NCBI GenBank assembly: GCA_016746295.1 | Contig: JAEAOA010001935.1 | Span: 2,738,024-2,802,023, forward strand | Origin: Potamilus streckersoni | Lineage: Eukaryota | DNA length: 64,000 nucleotides | Direction of reading: 5' to 3' | In this document: positions 7,782-61,230 of the stretch, piece by piece | Layout: every line of letters starts with the position of its first letter | How positions within the stretch are numbered: the first letter of the stretch is position 1 | Program-made: the position numbers and the translations under genes | The notes under the pieces: generated by a model | Database searches by the model: none | What the model was told of the DNA's origin: nothing | The model's input: the letters and a program-made list of their open reading frames with translations, nothing else

Positions 7782-8888
7782 GTAAGGGTATATTAGTGTC
7801 ATTTTTCACATGAAATATTTGATATAACATTGAATAGGCCATTTGATTTTTTTTTGTTATATCACTGTTGTAAAATTGAGACATAGGAAACTTTAAAGAG
7901 AGATGAATTTTGACTAAAATTAAAAACTCTTAGAAATTCTGTAAGTGACTTGAGGTATGATGTCTATGTTTAAAATATAGCTTCTGGGTTTGCACAGGCC
8001 TGGAAAAGTTCTGGAATTCTAGGGGTTCTTGGAAATGTTATGAAATTAAGTCATAAGTGGGTTGTTTTGCTTTTGGAGAGTCTTTGAATTTGGAGAAAAA
8101 AAACTCCTTAAAGTTTTACAATATGTCCTGGAGTTATTATAAGTAAAATAAAATTAATTGGTTTTCAGAGTTCATTTGAAAGAAAAATGTTTTTTCACAT
8201 TTGAAAAACAAAATTATTGATTATATTAGTGTTCAATAGTGTTGCCTAGCTGAATTTGATGTTAGTGCTGACAGCTGGGTACCAGTCTTTGATTTTGATG
8301 TTTGGAATCCTCTAATGTTTTTTTTTAGTATTATTATAATTTCTTGAAAAGCATATGTCCAGTGAAGTGGAAGAATTCTTTGCAAATGAGGAAAGTTGAG
8401 TAAGAGGAAGTGTGGTTACATATCTCTAAAATCAACCAAGTGCCACAACTGCATCTTTCTTTGGTCTGTCATTTGAAAGTTGTTTAAATTGTAGTTTAAG
8501 TGATTAAATATAGTTTGAATAATACACAGTGCATCCTTCTCTAGCCACTTTATTTTGGACCCCTCTTTGTCTACGAGGGTTTCACTACCATAATTGATGT
8601 TGTAGTCAGTATTATGTCAATAAGCTAGTAACTAAATTGAGGTATGTCGTCATGTTGAACCAATCAGATTACTGAGTCTGGAGCATGTGATCACGCATTA
8701 AGTTGTCCCAGGAATTCATAGAGCAGCTAGGGATGTGTGTGAAGGGTGCGTCTTCCAGTGCGAATTATCAACGCCACAATTAACTTTAGCAATTTATCGG
8801 TGGAAAGAGCCACCCGCCTCCCCACCTTCCACCATGTCATTTATTTGGGGCATTTTTTGCATGGTATACTGTTCCAGTTTTGGTTCCA

Positions 8889-9295
8889 TTGCCAAGTTTT
8901 CATTCATTCAAAACTTTGCTTTTGAATCCCAATTTGTGTCAGTGCTTAAATGTAAACGACTATTATGCCCATATACTTCATACCAGCTTCCTACGGTGCA
9001 TGTATGGAGTATCGGCTGATGTTTGTTATCATAGCATCCTCAGGATCGGACTTGTCGAGTTTCGGTTATCATTGTTCCTATATACCTCATGTCAGCCCCA
9101 TGCTGCTCAACATACAGGTATCAGACACTTCATAACCCTACAAACTCCAACATGTATCTTGTCCTGAGGTATCCTTTAGAACAATTCAGAGCTGGGCTGG
9201 GGCAGTGTGCTGAGACAGGATTTGCCCCCATTATGCCAAAAGAATTATGTTATATATACAATAAAGTGTCTATTGAACCAGTGTATTGTGTGTTG
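8889..9295 (+). repeat. Dispersed repeat copy A, about 405 bp, same family as 37459-37865. Flanked by further shared segments (8270-8480, 9300-9460, 10370-10450)
   Basis: About 90% identity to 37459-37865 over about 400 bp. ORFs 8880..9167 and 37461..37739 encode the same pseudo-peptide. Confidence 0.8.
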
Positions 9296-10439
9296 TTTAA
9301 ATTAGTATTATTATAATTTCTTGAAAAGCATATGTCCAGTGAAGTGGAAGAATTCTTTGCAAATGAGGAAAGTTGAGTAAGAGGAAGTGTGGTTACATAT
9401 CTCTAAAATCAACCAAGTGCCACAACTGCATCTTTCTTTGGTCTGTCATTTGAAAGACTGATGACAATGGAAAGGACAAACAATGATTCAGAGTTGTCAG
9501 TACCTCCATTTTCAAGCCATAACAAGACAAAACAGTTTTCATGTGGTGACAGGAAAGCTGCATAGGTGTGTGTTTGGCTTGGTAGAGCATTTTGAGCATT
9601 CAGTGAAGAACAGTGTTTCAGGTCCGTTTGATGCAAGTCTGACGAAAATGTTTCAAGAAAAGCAATTAGATGTTCACTTTACATTTTTAATAATCCATCC
9701 ATTAAAGTCAATTACTAAAATTTAAGAAATATTTGCATAAGAATTGTCAGAACCTTTTTTCTACCTAAATTGAATTGTGAAACAACTTAAGAAAGTTTGG
9801 AAACCTCAGTTAAAATGTTGATGATGATTCTAGTTTACTGATTCCTATATATTTAAATGTAATGATATAATTAAAAAGGTTTCAGATGTGAACTGTTTTC
9901 TTCAGTTTTATTTTTATTGCAATAGAAAAATATTATCTTGATTTATTTTGTTATAGATTTGATCTGCCAGGAAAAAAGTTTATGTTTTTTTGGTAAATTA
10001 TCATTTTAAACAGAGTAACAATTTGGATGAAAATACTTCGTAATGATTATGTAAAATGCTGGAAAATATTTCACCAAGTCGGTATGAACCCTTAACTAGC
10101 ATTTTATCAAAGACACCACTTATTTCAATAATACTGTGCATTCAGTTATTTTAATTGGTTTCATTTTTCAGTTTTTCATACATTGATATTTCCATTGTTG
10201 CTTAAATTCATATATTTGTTAAAGTTTTCTATTGTTTCCACAGGAATGATTGCTCGTTGGGACTCTTAATTTGTGGGTTGTAGCAAAATCGAAAAAATGA
10301 TTGGTAGGCCACTAAAAAAGTAAATTTACGGTATGTTGAGATAAGATTATTTTGTATTGTTCTGAACAATACAGCTGGGTACCAGTCTTTGATTTTGACA
10401 TTTGGAATCCTCTGATGTTTTTTTATAGTATTATTATAA

Positions 10440-14635: not shown

Positions 14636-17600
14636 ATGTCATGATTCATGGTAAATCTGAAACTAAGTCAAGATTCATGGTACATTTGCATTTGAGCTAT
14701 AGCTCCAAAGTCAATCAAGATTCATGGTACATTTGCATTTGAGCTATAGCTCCATAGTCAATCAAGATTCATGGTACATTTGCATTTGAGCTATAGCTCC
14801 ATAGTCAATCAAGATTCATGGTACATTTGCAGGTGAGCTATAGTTCCAAAGTCAATCAAGATTCATGGTACATTTGCATTTGAGCTATAGCTCCATAGTC
14901 AATCAAGATTCATTGTACATTTGCAGGTGAGCTATAGCTCCATAGTCAATCAAGATTCATGGTACATTTGCATTTGAGCTATAGCTCCATAGTCAATCAA
15001 GATTCATGGTACATTTGCATTTGAGTTATAGCTCCAAAGTCAATCAAGATTCATGGTATTTTTGCATTTGAGCTATAGCTCCATAGTCAATCAAAATTCA
15101 TGGTACATTTACAGGTGAGCTATAGCTCCATAGTCAATCAAGATTCATGGTACAATTGCAGGTGAGCTATAGCTCCAAAGTCAATCAAGATTCATGGTAC
15201 ATTTGCATTTGAGCTATAGCTCCATAGTCAATCAAAATTCATGGTACATTTGCATTTGAGCTTTAGCTTCAAAGTCAGTCAAAATTCATGGTATATTTGC
15301 ATTTGAGCTATAGCTCCATAGTCAATCAAGATGCATGGTACATTTGCAGGTGAGCTATAGCTCCATAGTCAATCAAAATTCATGGTACATTTGCATTTGA
15401 GCTATAGCTCCATACTCAATCAAAATTCATGGTACTTTTGCATTTGAGCTATAGCTCCAAAGTCAATCAAGATTCATGGTACATTTGCATTTGAGCTATA
15501 GCTCCATAGTCAATCAAAATTCATGGTACATTTGCATTTGAGCTATAGCTCCAAAGTCAATCAAAATTCATGGTTCATTTGCATTTGAGCTATAGCTTCA
15601 AAGTCAGTCAAAATTCATGGTACATTTGCATTTGAGCTATAGCTCCATAGTCAATCAAGATTCATGGTATAGTTGCATTTGAGCTATAGCTCCATAGTCA
15701 ATCAAGATTCATGGTACATTTGCATTTGAGCTATCAAGATTCATGGTACAATTGCAGGTGAGCTATAGCTTCATAGTCAATCAAGATTCATGGTACATTT
15801 GCATTTGAGCTATAGCTCCATAGTCAGTCAAAATTCATGGTATATTTGCATTTGAGCTATAGCTCCATAGTCAATCAAGATTCATGGTACATTTGCAGGT
15901 GAACTATAGCTCCATAGTCAATCAAGATTCATGGTACATTTGCAGGTGAGCTATAGCTCCATAGTCAATCAAAATTCATGGTACATTTGCATTTGAGCTA
16001 TAGCTCCATAGTCAATCAAGATTTCTTGGTACATTTGCATTTGAGCTATAGCTCCATAGTCAATCAAAATTCATGGTACATTTGCAGGTGAGCTATAGCT
16101 CCATAGTCAATCAAAATTCATGGTACATTTGCAGGTGAGCTATAGCTCCATAGTCAATCAAGATTTCATGGTACATTTGCAGGTGAGCTATAGCTCCATA
16201 GTCAATCAAAATTCATGGTACATTTGCAGGTGAGCTATAGCTCCATAGTCAATCAAGATTCATGGTACATTTGCATTTGAGCTATTGCTCCATAGTCAGT
16301 CAGAATTCATGGTACATTTGCATTTGAGCTATAGCTCCATAGTCAATCAAGATTCATGGTACATTTGCAGGTGAGCTATAGCTCCATAGTCAATCAAAAT
16401 TCATGGTACATTTGCAGGTGAGCTATAGCTCCATAGTCAATCAAGATTCATGGTACATTTGCATTTGAGCTATTGCTCTATAGTCAGTCAGAATTCATGG
16501 TACATTTGCATTTGAGCTATAGCTCCATAGTCAATCAAGATTCATGGTACATTTGCAGTTGAGCTATAGCTCCATAGTCAGTCAAAATTCATGGTATATT
16601 TGCATTTGAGCTATAGCTCCATAGTCAATCAAGATTCATGGTACATTTGCAGGTGAACTATAGCTCCATAGTCAATCAAGATTCATGGTACATTTGCAGG
16701 TGAGCTATAGCTCCATAGTCAATCAAAATTCATGGTACATTTGCATTTGAGCTATAGCTCCATAGTCAATCAAGATTTCTTGGTACATTTGCATTTGAGC
16801 TATAGCTCCATAGTCAATCAAAATTCATGGTACATTTGCAGGTGAGCTATAGCTCCATAGTCAATCAAAATTCATGGTACATTTGCAGGTGAGCTATAGC
16901 TCCATAGTCAATCAAGATTTCATGGTACATTTGCAGGTGAGCTATAGCTCCATAGTCAATCAAAATTCATGGTACATTTGCAGGTGAGCTATAGCTCCAT
17001 AGTCAATCAAGATTCATGGTACATTTGCATTTGAGCTATTGCTCCATAGTCAGTCAGAATTCATGGTACATTTGCATTTGAGCTATAGCTCCATAGTCAA
17101 TCAAGATTCATGGTACATTTGCAGGTGAGCTATAGCTCCATAGTCAATCAAAATTCATGGTACATTTGCAGGTGAGCTATAGCTCCATAGTCAATCAAGA
17201 TTCATGGTACATTTGCATTTGAGCTATTGCTCTATAGTCAGTCAGAATTCATGGTACATTTGCATTTGAGCTATAGCTCCATAGTCAATCAAGATTCATG
17301 GTACATTTGCAGTTGAGCTATAGCTCCATAGTCAATCAAAATTCATGGTACATTTGCATTTGAGGTATAGCTCCATAGTCAATCAAGATTTCATGGTACA
17401 TTTGCAGGTGAGCTATAGCTCCATAGTCAATCAAAATTCATGGTACATTTGCAGGTGAGCTATAGCTCCATAGTCAATCAAAATTCATGGTACATTTGCA
17501 TTTGAGCTATAGCTCCATAGTCAATCAAGATTCATGGTACATTTGCAGGTGAGCTATAGCTCCATAGTCAATCAAAATTCATGGTACATTTGCAGGTGAG

Positions 17601-17850
17601 CTATAGCTCCATAGTCAATCAAGATTCATGGTACATTTGCAGGTGAGCTATAGCTCCATAGTCAATCAAAATTCATGGTACATTTGCAGGTGAGCTATAG
17701 CTCCATAGTCAATCAAGATTCATGGTACATTTGCAGGTGAGCTATAGCTCCATAGTCAATCAAAATTCATGGTACATTTGCAGGTGAGCTATAGCTCCAT
17801 AGTCAATCAAAATTCATGGTACATTTGCAGGTGAGCTACTGCTCTTTTAC
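14636..17850. repeat. Very large minisatellite with a 47-bp unit (tcaatcaagattcatggtacatttgcatttgagctatagctccatag, alternating catttgag/caggtgag and caagatt/caaaatt variants), about 68 copies over 3.2 kb
   Basis: Period 47 bp measured between successive tcaatcaag motifs. Confidence 0.95.
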
Positions 17851-29589: not shown

Positions 29590-30000
29590 TCAGAATAGTC
29601 TGCTTGGAAAATAATGCAAATCTTATGTACAGTAGATTCATTGCAGTTATCTCCTTAGAAAACATCTCAGATCTTATGCACAGTAGATTCAGGTCAGTTA
29701 TCTCCTTAGAAAATATCTCAGATCTTATGCACAGTAGATTCAGGTCAGTTATCTCCTTAGAAAACATCTCAGATCTTATGTACAGTAGATTCAGGTCAGT
29801 TATCTCCTTAGAAAACAAACATCTCAGATCTTATGTACAGTAGATTCAGGTCAGTTATCTTCTTAGAAAACATCTCAGATCTTATGCACAGTAGATTCAG
29901 GTCAGTTATCTCCTTAGAAAACATCTCAGATCTTATGCACAGTAGATTCAGGTCAGTTATCTCCTTAGAAAATATCTCAGATCTTGTGTACAGTAGATTC
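29590..30000. repeat. Minisatellite with a 51-bp unit (atctcagatcttatgcacagtagattcaggtcagttatctccttagaaaac), about 8 copies
   Basis: Period 51 bp. It runs in frame into the real exon at 30070, which explains ORF 29833..30366. Confidence 0.9.
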
Positions 30001-30069
30001 ATTTTAATTAAGTACTTTGAAATTATCTCAGATCTGTTGTACAGTTGTAATTCTTTTTATTGTTTACAG

Positions 30070-30559: not shown

Positions 30560-31960
30560 CCACACTTACATACTTAAATATCTTGTATATGTAGACATAG
30601 ATCATGAATAGGTATGTAGATATTGTGTATATGTAGGTATAGGTATATAGACACAGATGATGTATACATAAGCATAGGTATGTAGACTTAAATTATTTGT
30701 AGATAGGCATAGGTATGTAGACATATCATGCATATGTTAACATAGATGATAAATGTCATCCATATGTAAATATCGGTCATGCATATGTAGGCATAGAGGG
30801 TATGTAGATATAAATCATGTATATGTAAGTATAAACATATACACATAGATTATGCATATGTAGACACAGCTCCTGCATATGCATGCATAGGTGTGTACAT
30901 AGATTATGCATATGTAGGCATATATATGTAGTCATAAATTATGAATAGGAATGCATAGGAATGTAGATATAAATCATGCATATGTATGATGACAGATCAT
31001 GCAGATACAGACACAGATCATGCACTTGTAGACACAGCTTTATCAGTATATATCTCAACCTTATTGGTGGGTCACCTATTGCCATGCATAACAGCTTAAG
31101 CAGTTACATAAGCAATGGGACTTAGATAATGCAGATGTAGACAGATCATTAGACATAGATCATGCACATGTAGACATAGACATAGATCATGCAGATGTAG
31201 ACAGGTCATGCAGATGTAGACATAGATCATGCAGATGTAGACAGATCATTAAGATGTAGACATAGATAATGCAGATGTAGACATAGATCATGCAGATGTA
31301 GACAGATCATTAAGATGTAGACATAGATAATGCAGATGTAGACATAGATCATATATATGTAGACATAGATCATGCAGATGTAGACAGATCATTGGACATA
31401 GATCATGCAGATGTAGACAGGTCATGCAGATGTAGACATAGATCATGCAGAGGTAGACAGATCATTAAGATGTAGACATTGATCATATATATGTAGACAT
31501 AGATCATGCAGATGTAGACATAGATCATGCAGATATAGATATAGATCATTAGACATAGATCATGCAGATGTAGACCGGTCATGCAGATGTAGACATAGAT
31601 CATTAGACATAGAGTATGCAGATGTAGACAGATCATGCAGATGTAGACAGATCATGCAGATGTAGACAGATCATGCAGATATAGACAGATGATTAAGATG
31701 TAGACATAGATCATTAGACATTGATTATTTTGATGTAGACATAGATCATAAATATGTAGACATAGATCATAAAGATGTAGACAGATCATTAAGATGTAGA
31801 CATATCATTAGACATAGATCATAAAGATTTAGACATAGATCATTAGACATAAATCATGAAGATGTTGACAGATCATAAAGATATAGACATAGATCATAAA
31901 GATGTAGACATAGATCATTAAGATGTAGACATAGATCATAAAGATATAGACAGTTTAAAG
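30560..31960. repeat. Minisatellite with a 21-bp unit (gatcatgcagatgtagacata), more than 45 copies, with a degenerate 5' part at 30560-31000
   Basis: Period 21 bp. The minus-strand ORFs (MIYVYIC)n are artifacts. Confidence 0.9.
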
Positions 31961-32029: not shown

Positions 32030-32129
32030 CCCAACAGCCAATCACCACCAGATGAGATGTATTGCCAGCCTAGGAGGGGGAACATATGAGTACTATAATG
32101 CCAACACCAAATCAGCTTGGCAAAGGAAG
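32030..32129 (+). CDS. PARP4: PARP4 window-exon 13, vWA domain: (G)PTANHHQMRCIASLGGGTYEYYNANTKSAWQRK
   Basis: Acceptor cctgcag|ccc and donor aag|gtgaga. Aligns to human STANRHVLRILSQCGAGVFEYFNAKSKHSWRKQ. Confidence 0.85.
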
Positions 32130-33660
32130 GTGAGAGATATGAGTATTATAATGCCAACACCAAGTCAGCTTGGCAAAGGAAGGTGAGAGATATGAATACT
32201 ATAATGCCAACACCAAGTCAGCTTGGCAAAAGAAGGTGAGAGATATGAGTACTATAATGCCAACACCAAATCAGCTTGGCGAAGGAAGGTGAGAGACAGA
32301 AAGGAGTATTATAATGCCAACACCAAATCAGCTTGGCAAAGGAAGGTGAGAGATATGAGTACTATAATGCCAACACCAAGTCAGCTTGGCAAAGGAAGGT
32401 GAGAGATATGAGTACTATAATGCCAACACCAAATCAGCTTGGCGAAGGAAGGTGAGAGACAGAAAGGAGTATTATAATGCCAACACCAAATCAGCTTGGC
32501 AAAGGAAGGTGAGAGATATGAGTATTAAAATGCCAACACCAAGTCAGCTTGGCAAAGGAAGGTGAGAGATATGAGTACTATAATGCCAACACCAAGTCAG
32601 CTTGGCAAAGGAAGGTGAGAGATATGAGTATTATAATGCCAACACCAAATCAGCTTGGCAAAGGAAGGTAAGAGATATGAGTATTATAATGCCAACACCA
32701 AGTCAGCTTTGCAAAGGAAGGTGAGAGATATGAGTACTATAATGCCAACACCAAGTCAGCTTGGCAAAGGAAGGTGAGAGATATGAGTACTATAATGCCA
32801 ACACCAAGTCAGCTTGGCAAAGGAAGGTGAGAGACAGAAAGGAGTACTATAATGCCAACACCAAATCAGCTTGGCAAAGGAAGGTGAGAGATATGAGTAT
32901 TATAATGCCAACACCAAATCAGCTTGGCAAAGGAAGGTGAGAGACTGATATGAGTACTATAATGCCAACACCAAATCAGCTTGGCAAAGGAAGGTGAGAG
33001 ACTGATATGAGTACTATAATGCCAACACCAAATCAGCTTGGCAAAGGAAGGTGAGAGATATGAGTATTATAATGCCAGCACCAAGTCAGCTTGGCAAAGG
33101 AAGGTGAGAGATATGAGTACTATAATGCCAACACCAAGTCAGCTTGGCAAAGGAAGGTGAGAGACAGAAAGGAGTACTATAATGCCAACACCAAATCAGC
33201 TTGGCAAAGGAAGGTGAGAGATATGAGTATTATAATGCCAACACCAAATCAGCTTGGCAAAGGAAGGTGAGAGACTGATATGAGTACTATAATGCCAACA
33301 CCAAATCAGCTTGGCAAAGGAAGGTGAGAGACTGATATGAGTACTATAATGCCAACACCAAATCAGCTTGGCAAAGGAAGGTGAGAGATATGAGTATTAT
33401 AATGCCAGCACCAAGTCAGCTTGGCAAAGGAAGGTGAGAGACAGAAAGGAGTATTATAATGCAAACACCAAATCAGCTTGGCAAAGGAAGGTGAGAGACA
33501 GAAAGGAGTATTATAATGCCAACACCAAATCAGCTTGGCAAAGGAAGGTGAGAGACAGAAAGGAGTACTATAATGCCAACACCAAATCAGCTTGGCAAAA
33601 GAAAGGTGAGAGACAGAAAGGAGTATTATAATGCCAACGCCAAGTCAGCTAGGCAAACAA
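32085..33660 (+). repeat. Minisatellite derived from an exon-intron junction. The unit is the last 42 nt of exon 13 plus the first 11-15 nt of the intron (gagtactataatgccaacaccaaatcagcttggcaaaggaag|gtgagagatat). It occurs as 53-nt and 57-nt variants, about 27 copies, and each copy carries an aag|gtgaga donor
   Basis: Direct comparison of the unit with the exon 13 3' end and donor. ORF 33368..33631 shows the 57-nt variant reads through in frame. Confidence 0.9.
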
Positions 33661-34949
33661 AAACATTTGGTTATTATAACACCAGCACAAATCAGTTTGG
33701 CAAATAAATGTGAGGGAGTGTATGAATATTATATTATATATGATCTTTTCCCATGACATCCAGTACTGGACTGGAGTACCAGATGCCACATGACTGAAAG
33801 CACCTAACCCTCAGCCATTATAGTTCTAGTGCTAGTTTTAACCTGGAAACCTAACATCTTAAGCATGTCCAGCACCTTAATCAGAGATTTATCTCATCCT
33901 ATCCTTACTGAAAGCATAGTAGTCCAGTACCAGGCAGATCCTTCACTGGTTTTGGCTCCATCTTGACCCATTACTGTCTACCATGACACACTTATCCTGG
34001 ATTCCCATTACCAGCCCTAAATCAATGGATATACACAATGAACACGTGGCAATAACTATATCCCAACATGAACAGATTCCCAGCATTTGTTGTCCGACTC
34101 ACACAGCTTGTTTGGCTAGATCTGTAACTGCTGTCCTCACAGGAGGCTTTTCTGTTACAATTTTCAAAGATTCATGGTCATGAGTTCTATCTTCCTTTTT
34201 CAACCTGATGATGTTGAGAGATGTTTAAGCATTGATTAGTGAGGTATCCTGCTCAATCTGCCTCTTATCTGTTCCTGTATTCATTGATTGTTTAGTCAAG
34301 AGAGCTCAGCTGTTACTCAAGCAACTATCATAGTTTTGTTGGTGACTTCATTGCTTTTGAAATGTCATTTCAAGACCCAGGTGTTAACAGCCTTGGTGTT
34401 TTTCATCAGCAGTGGCCAGTTTCAATCTAATTTGCTTAGCTGCTGCTGTCAGTGGAAATGTGGTTGTTTGTCATCCTTCATACATCTGTATGGAAGGAAG
34501 TCCTTCATTGACACATCAGCTGCTTCAAATTATTATAGCATTAGGACCCACACTCAGCTTGGTTTCCATGTTGTTGTTTTTTTTCCAGCAATCTGAGCAA
34601 GCATAAATAAATGTTTTTGAGAAACAAGTCATGCTGCAGAGTCCAACCTGCATATGGCTCCTGCAGTAACAGACTAACTCAACTCTTGCTTCCCTATTAC
34701 CGTTGCTGTTAATCTTCATCTGGCAGAGGAGATGCAGTTCTTTTCATACTCATTATCTGGGCAATTATTGCAGGGCCATTGCTAGATTGCAACAGGCCAC
34801 TGTAGAGAACAGAACGTCAAGGACCCAGTGACTCAGAGCCATGCCCTCTTTCCCTTTCTCTTAATGCTGTCAGCAATTATGCAGTGATTCCTTTCTAATA
34901 TTCCAGTGGGAGAAATTCAGCATGGCAATATCCCTCAGATCAATGGAAG

Positions 34950-35480
34950 ATAAGGCGTTATTTTTGGAGGCCATTACCCTACCATATGACATTAGTGATC
35001 ATTACAGCCCAACACAGCTGTACAATACAGGTTTTTTTTGGAGGCCATGTCCCTACCATATAACATTAGTGATCATTACAGCCCAACAATGCTGTACAAT
35101 ACATACTTATTTTTGGATGCCATGCCCGTACCATATAACATTAGTGATCATTACAGCCCAACTTAGCTGTACAATGCAGGGTTATTTTTGGAGGCCATGC
35201 CCCTACCATATAACATTAGCGATCATTACAGCCCAACAGAGCTGTACAATACAGGGTTATTTTTGGAGGCAATGCCCCTACCATATAACATTAGCGATCA
35301 TTACAGCCCAGCAGAGCTGTACAATACAGGGTTATTTCTGGAGGCCATGTCCCTACCATATAATATTAGAGATCATTACAGCCCAACAGAGCTGTACAGT
35401 ACATAGTTATTTTTGGAGGCCATGCCCCTACCATATAACATTAGCGATCATTACAGCCCAACAGCTGTACAATCATATCC
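34950..35480. repeat. Minisatellite with a 75-bp unit (ggaggccatgcccctaccatataacattagcgatcattacagcccaacagagctgtacaatacagggttatttttg), about 7 copies
   Basis: Period 75 bp. ORF 34922..35509 (195 aa) is an artifact. Confidence 0.9.
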
Positions 35481-37094
35481 TGCAGCTAGAACTAGCATAC
35501 TCCTTATAGAAGTTGTTGAAATAAACTCAAGCAGGAATTTACTCCAGACTCTTCTTGACTGATGGCATACTTTGACTGGTCGTAGATTTTATCTTTCTCA
35601 AGCTTTTTAATTCAGATACCTTGGTTTGGAATGGAAATATTAAGACTGGTTCTCTGTGCAGATCAGGAGGGAAATTTGTTTGGCATTCAGAGATACAGTA
35701 TACCAGCTCATGGCACTCCTGTTTGGTCTGAGTATCAGTCACTGGGTCTTTTCAAGAATTGTGGACAGCCACATTATTATGTTTGACCTCCAACTGCCAG
35801 AACAGCATTCTGCACAAGTGTTGGGTGGGTTATATACTAGATCAGGACCTGAAATTCCATTTTTCTGCTCTGCCATGAATTCCTTGTCAACAAGAGCAAA
35901 TCCATTATCTTACCATCTCAATATTTTGCCAACTGAGTACAGAGTTCAGAATCCATATGAACAGAATCTGTTTCCCTCAAGAACAATCCTTAAGATCATC
36001 CTTACAGTCTTCTGTCAAACAATCACATATTGTCTGATGAATTTCTTTGTGTTTTAAATGTCCTTGGTCCAGTAGCATATTTCATCTTCATTTGCTGTCT
36101 ATTTATGAGGCTATTGAAGATGATTCTCTATGGTGACTGTAGCTTTGTCGATTGGGTCCAGTGAACTCAATTTCAGAATACATGAAGTCCCTCAAGAAAT
36201 TAGAGAACTTGGCCTGGTTTACAGTGGGTATTTCCATGCAGATTCAGCATCAAGGATTATGATCAGCTAGGGTGTCTGCCTCCTGCCTTCATTTTAGAAA
36301 CATAGCTGGGAGTGGTCCTTTCACTCACATCACTTCTAGCTTTAAGTTAGTGAGCTGACAACATTTAGGACTTGTTGCAAAAAATGAGCTTGTGAGAGCT
36401 GGATTAAATGCATTATGAAAGGTAATTGTCTGAGTAGTATGTTTTATCCTAAGCCTTCAGACTGCTTTTATCATGCTTTTTTTGTTAGCTATCAAATAAA
36501 TCATATTCTCACATAAAGATTGTTGTGGAAATCGACTGTATCCTTTTATTATGTCTTGAAAACTTGCAAACTTAAACTTGCTCATAAGGTTTATGAATTC
36601 TATGTATATCGTTTTGATCCAAATCATATCCATGCACTTCAACTATTTTAAGCCAAGATAAATAAAACCCACATATTCAAATACCATTATGCCAAAGTAA
36701 ATATGTATCCTTCAGTAGTTGGGATAAAAACTGGTGTGATATTTAAGGTCATTGTCAATGAAAATTACTAAAATTACATTTCCCTCAATTGTTTTTTTTT
36801 TTATTGAAGGACAGTCAGAGGGAAAAAGAAAAATGGCAAAAACTTTATTTCAAGGGATGTTAGATTGTTTCAGAATGAAAACCAGTCAGATCTACTTGTT
36901 AATGGTCACCAACATTAAACAATTATCTGTCTTAAACAACTGTCTTTTCAAAAAGTCCAATCAATCAGATAACTTCGGATAGCTCCATGAAATTAAATAA
37001 CTACCCATCTTATGGGACCATATTTCTTACATTCCACTGGTAATTCCTCAATATGGGTCTTTCTGTATCAAATTTACCTTTGCTCTAATTGCAG

Positions 37095-37265
37095 GTAACA
37101 TCTCAGCTGGAGCAGGCATCCCAACCTAGGTTGATGGATGTCAGTGTCGATTGGATACAAGGAAATGATAAGGCTTCAAATCCGCTTCAGGCCCCTAGCA
37201 GTATTCCTAGTATCTTCAGTGGCTCTAGACAGGTTGTTTATGGCTTTGTCCCAAACTGTATGCAG
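37095..37265 (+). CDS. PARP4: PARP4 window-exon 14: VTSQLEQASQPRLMDVSVDWIQGNDKASNPLQAPSSIPSIFSGSRQVVYGFVPNCMQ
   Basis: Acceptor taattgcag|gta and donor atgcag|gtaaga. Aligns to human IEDQMTRLCSPSCHSVSVKWQQLNPDVPEALQAPAQVPSLFLNDRLLVYGFIPHCTQ. Confidence 0.9.
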
Positions 37266-37458
37266 GTAAGAAATGCAGGGTCAAAGAAAATAATAATCTC
37301 CTTTCTCAAATGGAACGTGATACTATACTGGAGTATTTTTTCTATCTAATAAGATTTTTTCTTAAGTCTGTGTGTCTATCATTTATATTGTAAAATTGGG
37401 GGCCTCGTTACAGTCACACTGTTCCAGAGTCACAGTGCTACTTTCACTTCGTTTGGGC

Positions 37459-37865
37459 CATTGCCAAGTTTTCATTCATTCAAAACTTTGCTTTTGAACC
37501 CCAATTTGTGTCAGTGCTTAAATGTAAACGACTATTATGCCCATATACTTCTTACCAGCTTCCTACGGTGCATGTATGGAGTATCGGCTGATGTTTGTTA
37601 TCATAGCATCCTCAGGATCGGACTTGTCGAGTTTGGGTTATCATTGTCCCTATATACCTCGTGTCAGCCCCATGCCGCTCAACATACAAGTATTGGACAC
37701 TTCACAACCCCACAAACTCCAACATGTATCTTTTCCTGAGGTATCCTTTAGAACAATTCAGAGCTGGGCTGGGGCAGTGTGCTGTGACAGGATTTGCCCC
37801 CATTATGCCAAAAGAATTATGTTATATATACAATAAAGTGTCTATTGAACAGGTGTATTGTGTGT
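37459..37865 (+). repeat. Dispersed repeat copy B, about 405 bp, same family and orientation as 8889-9295
   Basis: About 90% identity to copy A. Confidence 0.8.
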
Positions 37866-38401
37866 TATTTGAATAAGTTTGTTGTGCTTTTTAGCTGTCA
37901 TTTATATACCTGCTATCCATTCTTAAACTCAAATTTGATTTCATATTTTCATATGCTATCCACAACCCGGATTTTATCATGCTATATGTTGTTCATCTTC
38001 TGTCAGTCTTTTAGTTTTGTATCAGTTTTGTTTCCACACAATAGTTGGACTTGTGCACCATCTATTGTTACCAAACTCTATGGAAGGCATTCAGTTGGGG
38101 CAAGGAAGAACACCATCAATTAGTCTAGTTCCCTGCTTCGTATGCTCGCTGCGTTGCACTCCGCTGTACAGAGTCAGATGAACACCAATGCCATATTGTT
38201 ACGTGATCTAAACAAATGGCCTCACATGTAGAGATCTAGTTAATGTAACCATGTCACATTTATTTCTTTTCTATTCTGTTTGTCAGTGACACAGTGACCA
38301 AATATCATCACATTCACCCTCTCATGGAATAGGACTGCTATTTTGATCCTAATATTTGACAAAGTCTGAAGTGTCATGTACAATGAGATATCAATATCAG
38401 T

Positions 38402-58614: not shown

Positions 58615-59345
58615 TTCAGTAGAACTATGTCATATTTGTGAACAGGAGCTTTTGCCTTAAGATCATGTAAACTATCACTGTCATATTACTGGTAAGTATC
58701 GCAGTCCAGCACATAACAAATGTAATTTAAAATATACCACACCAGATTTATTTCCTGTTGTCTTTCAAAATTTCATAGGATATGATTCTCATTTGTAGTT
58801 TTAGCTTTACAGCCAAAAAAACCCATCAGAAAATGATGTTTAACAATAAAATAAAGTGCAAGTCTCTGACACTCAGCAAGATTTATTGATAGTTTTCAGT
58901 TTATGGCAGCATCATTCGATGAGCTTGTAAAAGGTCTGCATTAAATTCAATAATTTGACTAAATATTTTGGTGATAAATCAAGTTTATTGACACAAAAAG
59001 GAATTTTTCCTTATGAGTATCTTGATGATTGGAACGGAAAGATAAGTTTTTTTTCTTGTTTAGATCTTGAGAGTGTCAGTGATGTTGATTATGCTGAATA
59101 GATATGGGACTCATCCGGCTGTAAAAACTTGAGAGATTATCATGATTTGAATCTTATCACAGATGTGCTATTGCTCGCAGATTTATTTGAACATTTCTGA
59201 TGTCTGCACTGATAATTATTCAGATGGATAAGTGAAAAACAATTTTTTGATGAAGCTGATAGAATCGTTACAGTGGGATGCAAGAACCCTGAAGTTCGTT
59301 ATTTTGTTGGAGTTGATTTTGACGATCCTTTTGAGATTTATGATG
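58615..59345 (+). mobile_element. Decayed protein-primed family-B DNA polymerase (pPolB, DNA_pol_B_2-like) fragment, the Polinton/Maverick hallmark gene. It reads CHICEQELLP*DHVNYHCHITGKYRSPAHNKCNLKY..PDLFPVVFQNFIGYDSHL ... SFDELVKGL ... FKNLTKYFGDKSSLLTQKGIFPYEYLDDWNGK ... SDVDYAE*IWDSSGCKNLRDYHDLNLITDVLLLADLFEHF
   Basis: Recognised from memory, not from a search, as the conserved N-terminal module of eukaryotic element-encoded pPolB (CxxC...DHCHxTGxxRGxAHxxCNL, PVxFHNLxGYDxH, PYEYxDxW, KNLxxYHDLYLxTDVLLLADVFExFR). Multiple stops and frameshifts indicate a pseudogene. Confidence 0.5.
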
Positions 59346-59945
59346 AGCAATAACAACTATCCATTTTGTCCAGAATCAATGCTGATTGATTACAATTTAT
59401 TATGATGAGCAATAACAACTATCCATTTTGTCCAGAATCAATGCTGATTGATTAGAGTTTATTATAATGAGCAATAACAACTATTCATTTTGTCCAGAGT
59501 TATTGCTGATTGATTACAGTTTAATATGATGAGCAATAACAACTATCCATTTTGTCCAGAATCAATGCTGATTGATTACAATTTATTATGATGAGCAATA
59601 ACAACTACCCATTTTGTCCAGAATCAATGCTGATTGATTACAGTTTATTATGATGAGCAATAACAACTATCCATTTTGTCCAGAATCAATGCTGATTGAT
59701 TACAATTTATTATGTTGAGCAATAACAACTATCCATTTTGTCCAGAATCAAATGCTGATTGATTACAATTTATTATGATGAGCAATAACGACAATCCATT
59801 TTGTCCAGAATCAATGCTGATTGATTGCAATTTATTATGATGAGCAATTACAACTATCCATTTTGTCCAGAATCAATGCTGATTGATTACAGTTTATTAT
59901 GATGAGCAATAACAACTATCCATTTTGTCAATGCTGATCAATTAC
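59330..59945. repeat. Minisatellite with a 62-bp unit (tgatgagcaataacaactatccattttgtccagaatcaatgctgattgattacaatttatta), about 9 copies, beginning inside the 3' end of the pPolB remnant
   Basis: Period 62 bp. The first unit is contiguous with the pPolB-fragment reading frame (..FEIYDEQ). Confidence 0.9.

Positions 59946-61083: not shown

Positions 61084-61230
<147 letters not shown>

Follow-up and report, generated by a model that had tools for sequence, protein, structure and literature searches.

The 64,000-nt stretch of the Potamilus streckersoni genome analysed here (contig JAEAOA010001935.1, positions 2,738,024 to 2,802,023; hereafter the window) is AT-rich, with a G+C content of about 34%. 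Its + strand carries an intron-rich gene encoding PARP catalytic, VIT and vWA domains, in that order. At the end of the thirteenth exon of this gene lies a minisatellite array, whose unit consists of the 3' end of the exon followed by the first nucleotides of the adjoining intron, and in which a splice donor occurs 28 times.

The host gene and exon 13

When exon translations of two relatives from environmental assemblies (L001 and L002) were used in tblastn searches, 14 open and conserved exons were found between 560 and 37265. Canonical splice sites were present at all 13 exons whose boundaries were inspected. Pfam searches with the concatenated exons returned PARP (4e-10), VIT (1.4e-34) and VWA_3 (3.4e-22), and the domain order was the same in L001 and L002. 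Judged by this domain architecture, the gene is PARP4-like (vault PARP). A protein named PARP4 in UniRef, P0006 from the ascidian Phallusia, gave a weak match (E 8.8e-7, 30% identical). The exons of the gene are short (~80-190 nt) and its introns long (up to ~6 kb). Both relatives have compact PARP4 genes, in which one exon of ~1 kb encodes the entire vWA region and covers exons 8-14 of the window gene (10001..11020 in L001 and 3375..4472 in L002); their vWA regions are 50% and 45% identical to that of the window gene, and at least six introns differ between the lineages. Across the whole window, no Rfam match reached the gathering score and no tRNA gene was detected.

Exon 13, the thirteenth seen in the window, was placed at 32030..32129 on the + strand by tblastn, protein alignment and Pfam. 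It follows an acceptor at 32028-29 (ttcctgcag|), encodes (G)PTANHHQMRCIASLGGGTYEYYNANTKSAWQRK in its reading frame and ends with the donor AAG|GTGAGA, so that the authentic 5' splice site of intron 13 lies at 32130..32135. Intron 13 covers 4965 nt (32130..37094). It is followed by exon 14 (37095..37265, + strand, 171 nt), which encodes VTSQLEQASQPRLMDVSVDW...VPNCMQ between the acceptor ttgcag| and the donor CAG|GTAAGA. The array starts at 32084, inside exon 13, and thus overlaps a genuine exon-intron junction. Its first unit is formed by the last 46 nt of the exon (32084..32129), and the repeated peptide, YEYYNANTKSAWQRK, sits at the C-terminal edge of the vWA model.

Structure of the array

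Tandem Repeats Finder (TRF) delimited a 1.57-kb array on the + strand at 32084..33657, with a period of 53 (53- and 57-nt units), 28.8 copies, 91% matches and a score of 2329. When we scanned for a 37-nt core of the unit with the donor inside it, 27 matches with at most three mismatches were obtained, all of them in the array, compared to 0 expected from 100 dinucleotide-preserving shuffles. Both results indicate that the array is a minisatellite, i.e. a series of head-to-tail copies of a 10-100 bp unit far beyond chance. On neither strand of the window was another copy of the unit found, and an origin from a dispersed element is without support there. An exact scan of metagenome contigs for the unit core gave no match.

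A motif scan identified 28 donors. Their exon-last bases run from 32129, the authentic site, through 27 intronic copies on the + strand (32183..33611) with exon-last bases at 32182, 32235, 32288, 32345, 32398, 32451, 32508, 32561, 32614, 32667, 32720, 32773, 32826, 32883, 32936, 32993, 33050, 33103, 33156, 33213, 33266, 33323, 33380, 33433, 33490, 33547 and 33605. Twenty-seven of the 28 read AAG|GTGAGA, and the remaining one, at 32667|8, reads AAG|GTAAGA. A preliminary description of this DNA had proposed about 27 tandem copies with the same donor in every unit; the array and the near-uniformity of its donors were borne out, while the number of donors had to be raised by one. Steps from donor to donor measure 53 nt in 16 cases, 57 nt in ten and 58 nt in one.

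Alignment of the units revealed three types of junction, distinguished by the 7, 11 or 15 nt of intron start that follow the exon end. Type A units (53 nt) combine 46 exon nt with 7 intron nt (GTGAGAG). The four type C units (57 nt) combine 46 exon nt with 11 intron nt (GTGAGAGACTG), and the type B units, also 57 nt long, combine 42 exon nt with 15 intron nt (GTGAGAGACAGAAAG). Type B is represented by six units, one 58-nt variant and one decayed unit. It had been recognized before that the unit joins an exon end to an intron start, although only two variants had been distinguished. The intron prefix GTGAGAGAC is common to all three types, and the original intron would have started with GTGAGAGACAGAAAG. 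The array was presumably built from more than one breakpoint, or its junctions were remodelled later.

Downstream, the array fades into two or three decayed units (33606..33745, + strand): one without a donor, one with a degenerate AAT|GTGAGG at 33710, and one partial unit. Decayed edge units are usual for an aged array whose core is under continued homogenisation.

The exon as the ancestral copy

The peptide encoded by exon 13 aligns with P0001 (50% identical), P0002 (45%) and more distant vWA proteins, as illustrated by the stretch YEFYDTATKSKWEGK of P0001 aligned with YEYYNANTKSAWQRK of exon 13. The best matches in the protein searches, all from environmental or assembly contigs, were 50% identical over the vWA region and no more than 86% identical over parts of the strongly conserved VIT query. 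Conservation of the exon 13 peptide among homologues identifies the exon as the original from which the array was copied. This agrees with the earlier proposal that the unit stems from a vWA-coding exon and the start of the intron behind it. The homologues also align without a gap across the exon 13/14 junction (TKSAWQRK|VTSQLEQASQP vs TKSKWEGKVRSQIQKSSQP). Since they show no insertion at this position, the productive mRNA uses the first donor.

Reading frame and splice outcomes

To follow the coding consequences of each donor, splicing was simulated by extending exon 13 to each of the 28 donors, joining it to exon 14 and translating the product. Only donor 1 kept the frame into exon 14, and all 27 alternative donors led to a premature stop. 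With donor 2 (+53 nt), the stop falls right at the junction between the extended exon 13 and exon 14 (...GGA AG|G TAA). For donors 3-28, the frame is closed by the first in-frame stop met when the exon 13 frame is read into the array, a TGA at 32184..32186 (+ strand). This stop arises because the exon-adjacent unit is 53 nt long, so that its donor is read as GG-TGA-G.

It had been suggested that the 57-nt unit stays open and that downstream donors could insert 19-amino-acid repeats. The first point is correct for the type B units, which account for six of the ten 57-nt units and are the only ones open in the exon frame; the four type C units read GTG AGA GAC TGA and contain a stop. Open type B units lie 200-1400 nt from exon 13. 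Consecutive units remain open at one place only, ~1.3 kb away, where three type B units in a row (57, 57 and 58 nt; 33434..33605, + strand) read VRDRKEYYNANTKSAWQRK. These three units are spanned by an open stretch that extends, from stop to stop, over 33350..33628 (93 amino acids); its existence had been noted, with the limits set at 33368..33631. The second point did not hold, as the stops reached from donor 2 and from donors 3-28 make an in-frame 19-amino-acid insertion impossible in this haplotype. Accordingly, the array is not an in-frame coding variable number tandem repeat (VNTR), whose unit length would be divisible by three and whose frame would stay open beyond the flanking exon: 16 of the 27 steps are 53 nt.

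In this haplotype, any transcript spliced from a downstream donor encodes a truncated protein. Such transcripts are likely to be targets of nonsense-mediated decay, because further exons follow the stop. Within the array we found no plausible acceptor or pseudo-exon, since the 18 nt before any AG contain at most 50% pyrimidines; before six real acceptors of the gene, the share is 56-83%. A Pfam search with the repeat peptide returned only a sub-threshold match to PhiCb5_coat (E 0.0023, 18.4 bits vs a cut-off of 27), which we judged meaningless.

Age and turnover of the array

The array consensus matches the exon copy at every position. On average, a unit differs from this consensus by 2.5%, and two units differ by 3.6% (mean pairwise). 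Two variant sites are common, and all four of their combinations are present, suggesting that units exchange sequence or that the same mutations recurred. A further sign of turnover is an exact six-unit duplication on the + strand, in which 32774..33103 and 33104..33433 are identical at 330/330 positions; at lag 330, exact identity extends over at most 363 nt. A second duplication, of three units, matches at 161/163 positions. Judged by these two block duplications, growth of the array is very recent and proceeded by multi-unit steps (unequal exchange or slippage). From this single haplotype, array length would be predicted to differ between individuals, and it likely does.

Nine columns vary in the 42 nt derived from the exon, five at codon position 3, four at position 2 and none at position 1. 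Among the units we also found a nonsense variant (TAT>TAA in u09) and the missense variants W>L, N>S and Q>R. Selection on the coding capacity of the units was considered and discarded: neither the distribution of variable sites nor the nonsense and missense variants gave a sign of constraint.

Origin of the array and fate of the extra donors

The array, which stems from the boundary of exon 13 and intron 13, is probably an intronic minisatellite with silent extra donors and, as a whole, an essentially neutral by-product of a region rich in minisatellites. A segment of ~50 nt straddling the boundary would have been tandemly duplicated locally; unequal exchange or replication slippage would then have added blocks of one to six units. 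The duplication would begin in the exon and extend downstream, leaving both exon and donor intact in copy 1. Because copy 1 preserves them, the rearrangement would leave the protein unchanged whenever splicing starts from the first donor, and the array would illustrate how a repeat born at a junction can be tolerated.

At the level of splicing, the productive mRNA joins 32129 to 37095. Since no usable acceptor precedes them, the 27 extra donors could serve only to lengthen exon 13, as alternative 5' sites. The short exons and long introns of the gene lead us to expect exon definition, which would pair the acceptor at 32030 with the nearest donor, 100 nt downstream. The remaining donors would be orphan U1 sites, cleared at spliceosome assembly or commitment. 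Indeed, only one U1 small nuclear ribonucleoprotein survives into complex A, whatever the number of 5' sites (Hodson et al. 2012, PMC3413131).

Several points weigh against this explanation. When two identical strong 5' sites were placed at least 45 nt apart in model substrates, the intron-proximal (downstream) site was used almost exclusively (PMC3413131). Applied naively, this proximity rule predicts that the last donors, not the first, are used here. AAG|GTGAGA equals or surpasses most donors of the gene in quality, and the silence of the extra copies is assumed rather than demonstrated. Finally, an assembly error could affect the length of the array. The substrates of Hodson et al. resemble the array in that identical donors at least 45 nt apart (53-58 nt here) contest one acceptor. 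They contain two sites and short introns, however, and the intron-proximal site wins, whereas here 28 sites precede a 3.5-kb intron remainder and only the distal (first) donor is compatible with the protein. The proximity rule, if it held at this locus, would leave the gene without function, but the exons are intact. Either this context, with its long intron, 28 sites and exon definition, is exempt from the rule, or a part of the transcripts is lost.

The latter possibility leads to the foremost alternative, which we consider unlikely: downstream donors may be used appreciably, so that the array is a sink for unproductive splicing and PARP4 output falls with array length. The 28 donors are near-identical and share an identical upstream exonic context of 42-46 nt; with donors 2-4 the exon would measure 153-259 nt, a size normal for exons; the proximity rule favours downstream sites; and every alternative product has a stop. 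In addition, expansion of an intronic VNTR in human CUL4A was reported to alter splicing and reduce expression (PMC11701250). Like this VNTR and that of MIR137HG (PMC6692358), the array is intronic and its length could alter the share of correctly spliced mRNA; in those two cases an effect was measured, whereas here it is a possibility. The intact and conserved exons argue that enough correct mRNA is made.

The array would be biologically relevant only if the extra donors were used, in which case its length would modulate PARP4 output. We regard it as rather improbable that a working gene harbours a true contest among 28 equivalent 5' sites, resolved either by reliable choice of the first donor or with a length-dependent loss of transcripts. 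If the first donor is reliably chosen, the array would lend itself, as it stands, to studies of how exon definition prevails over the proximity rule. If instead a length-dependent share of transcripts is lost to premature stops, the VNTR would tune vault-PARP dosage and constitute an expression-level polymorphism. For annotation, the locus carries a warning: gene predictors and splice-aware aligners can put the exon 13 donor at any of the 28 sites, and a misplaced donor would invent frameshifts or repeat-containing proteins.

It appears very unlikely that misassembly produced the array, or its length and the block duplication within it. An exact 330-bp repeat inside a repeat is a structure that assemblers can create or collapse. 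However, the units vary at 10 positions, the three junction types occur in non-periodic order, and the edge units are decayed, as in a real, aged array. As this unit diversity is ordered, an assembly error is unlikely to account for the existence of the array.

Even less probable are protein isoforms in which alternative donors insert 19-amino-acid repeats after the vWA domain. The run of type B units at 33434..33605 offers suitable sequence, and one unequal exchange involving the exon copy and unit 25 would suffice to bring such units next to the exon; haplotypes rearranged in this way would yield in-frame insertions of 19 amino acids. Against this stand the 53-nt length of the first intronic unit with the stops that follow from it, the TGA in the type C units, and the uninterrupted homologues.

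An equally faint prospect is that the array is a relic of intron birth, in which an AGGT-containing coding segment was duplicated and one copy became the donor and a later copy the acceptor. Intron gain by AGGT segments likewise involves a tandem duplication with AG|GT, at a coding position that is intron-less in some relatives (Lehmann et al. 2010, PMC2891723). Here, the units contain AG|GT, and L001 and L002 lack the intron; moreover, read-through of the intron start (32130..32135) gives K|VR, as in the KVR of the intron-less P0001. We judge this match to be a coincidence, because GTGAGA is simply a consensus donor and KVR is not conserved (P0002 has KLL). The homology between intron 3' end and upstream exon end expected for such a gain is absent: local alignment of the unit with the intron 3' end and exon 14 start scored 12, compared to 12.4 +/- 2.0 for shuffles. 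The real acceptor lies 3.4 kb past the array with its own pyrimidine tract, the AGs of the array are poor acceptors, and creation of the intron by tandem duplication was rejected.

Comparison with known arrays at splice junctions

Alternatively spliced introns have reportedly arisen from tandem arrays whose units carry splice sites, as Zhuo, Madden, Elela and Chabot are said to have described in 2007 (PNAS 104:882; cited in PMC3488318). As in those arrays, each unit here has a splice site and the array offers many equivalent sites. The arrays of that study are said to supply both donor and acceptor and to create new introns within exons, whereas the present one supplies donors only and depends on an independent acceptor.

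Another parallel comes from human genes with internal tandem repeats at exon-intron boundaries (De Grassi and Ciccarelli 2009, PMC2812944): 162 alignments were reported as candidates and 27 intron modifications were curated, often together with alternative transcripts. As in those cases, units of minisatellite size lie across an exon-intron boundary and multiply a splice signal. The human cases come from recently duplicated primate paralogues, average ~4 units of ~30 bp and are supported by transcripts. In contrast, the present array has 28 units and lies, in an AT-rich animal genome, in one gene without a second copy in the window. It is a new, unusually large example of this described class, the exon-intron boundary tandem repeat that multiplies a splice donor.

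Other repeats in the window

The window contains ~17 minisatellite arrays with periods of 21-93 nt, which cover ~21% of its 64 kb and lie nearly all in introns of the PARP4-like gene. Assuming ~16 arrays, each grown from a ~50-nt seed, in ~50 kb of unique sequence with ~36 splice junctions, our own rough estimate is that ~0.6 junction-spanning arrays are expected in the window. A single one is thus unremarkable, provided that it is tolerated. Since about one fifth of the window is minisatellite and boundary repeats are already catalogued in human genes (PMC2812944), the preliminary description overstated the case in calling the origin of the VNTR unusual.

The largest array (14668..17838, 3.2 kb) comprises 67.7 copies of a 47-nt unit. 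Intron 13 itself also contains an unrelated 75-bp minisatellite at 34957..35473, and another array (31124..31953) lies directly upstream of exon 13. Only 25 nt separate the end of a 51-nt minisatellite at 29620..30045 from the exon 12 acceptor that follows it (30069|30070). Each unit of this minisatellite ends in ...TCTCAG, so that it presents a string of weak acceptor-like sites beside a real acceptor, in mirror image to the donor array.

A dispersed repeat, probably a short mobile element, was found at 8879..9306 and 37452..37878; the two copies are 95.3% identical over 428 bp and lie in the same orientation in two different introns. Pfam searches with the open reading frame (ORF) fragments at 51-59 kb gave no match. 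The cluster of such fragments at ~56.7-59.4 kb may be a decayed mobile element. It includes an open stretch (59232..59402) inside which a 62-nt minisatellite starts (59338..59929, 9.5 copies); here, too, an array would have started from sequence that was once coding. Further downstream, a pure (ATA)46 microsatellite occupies 61087..61224.

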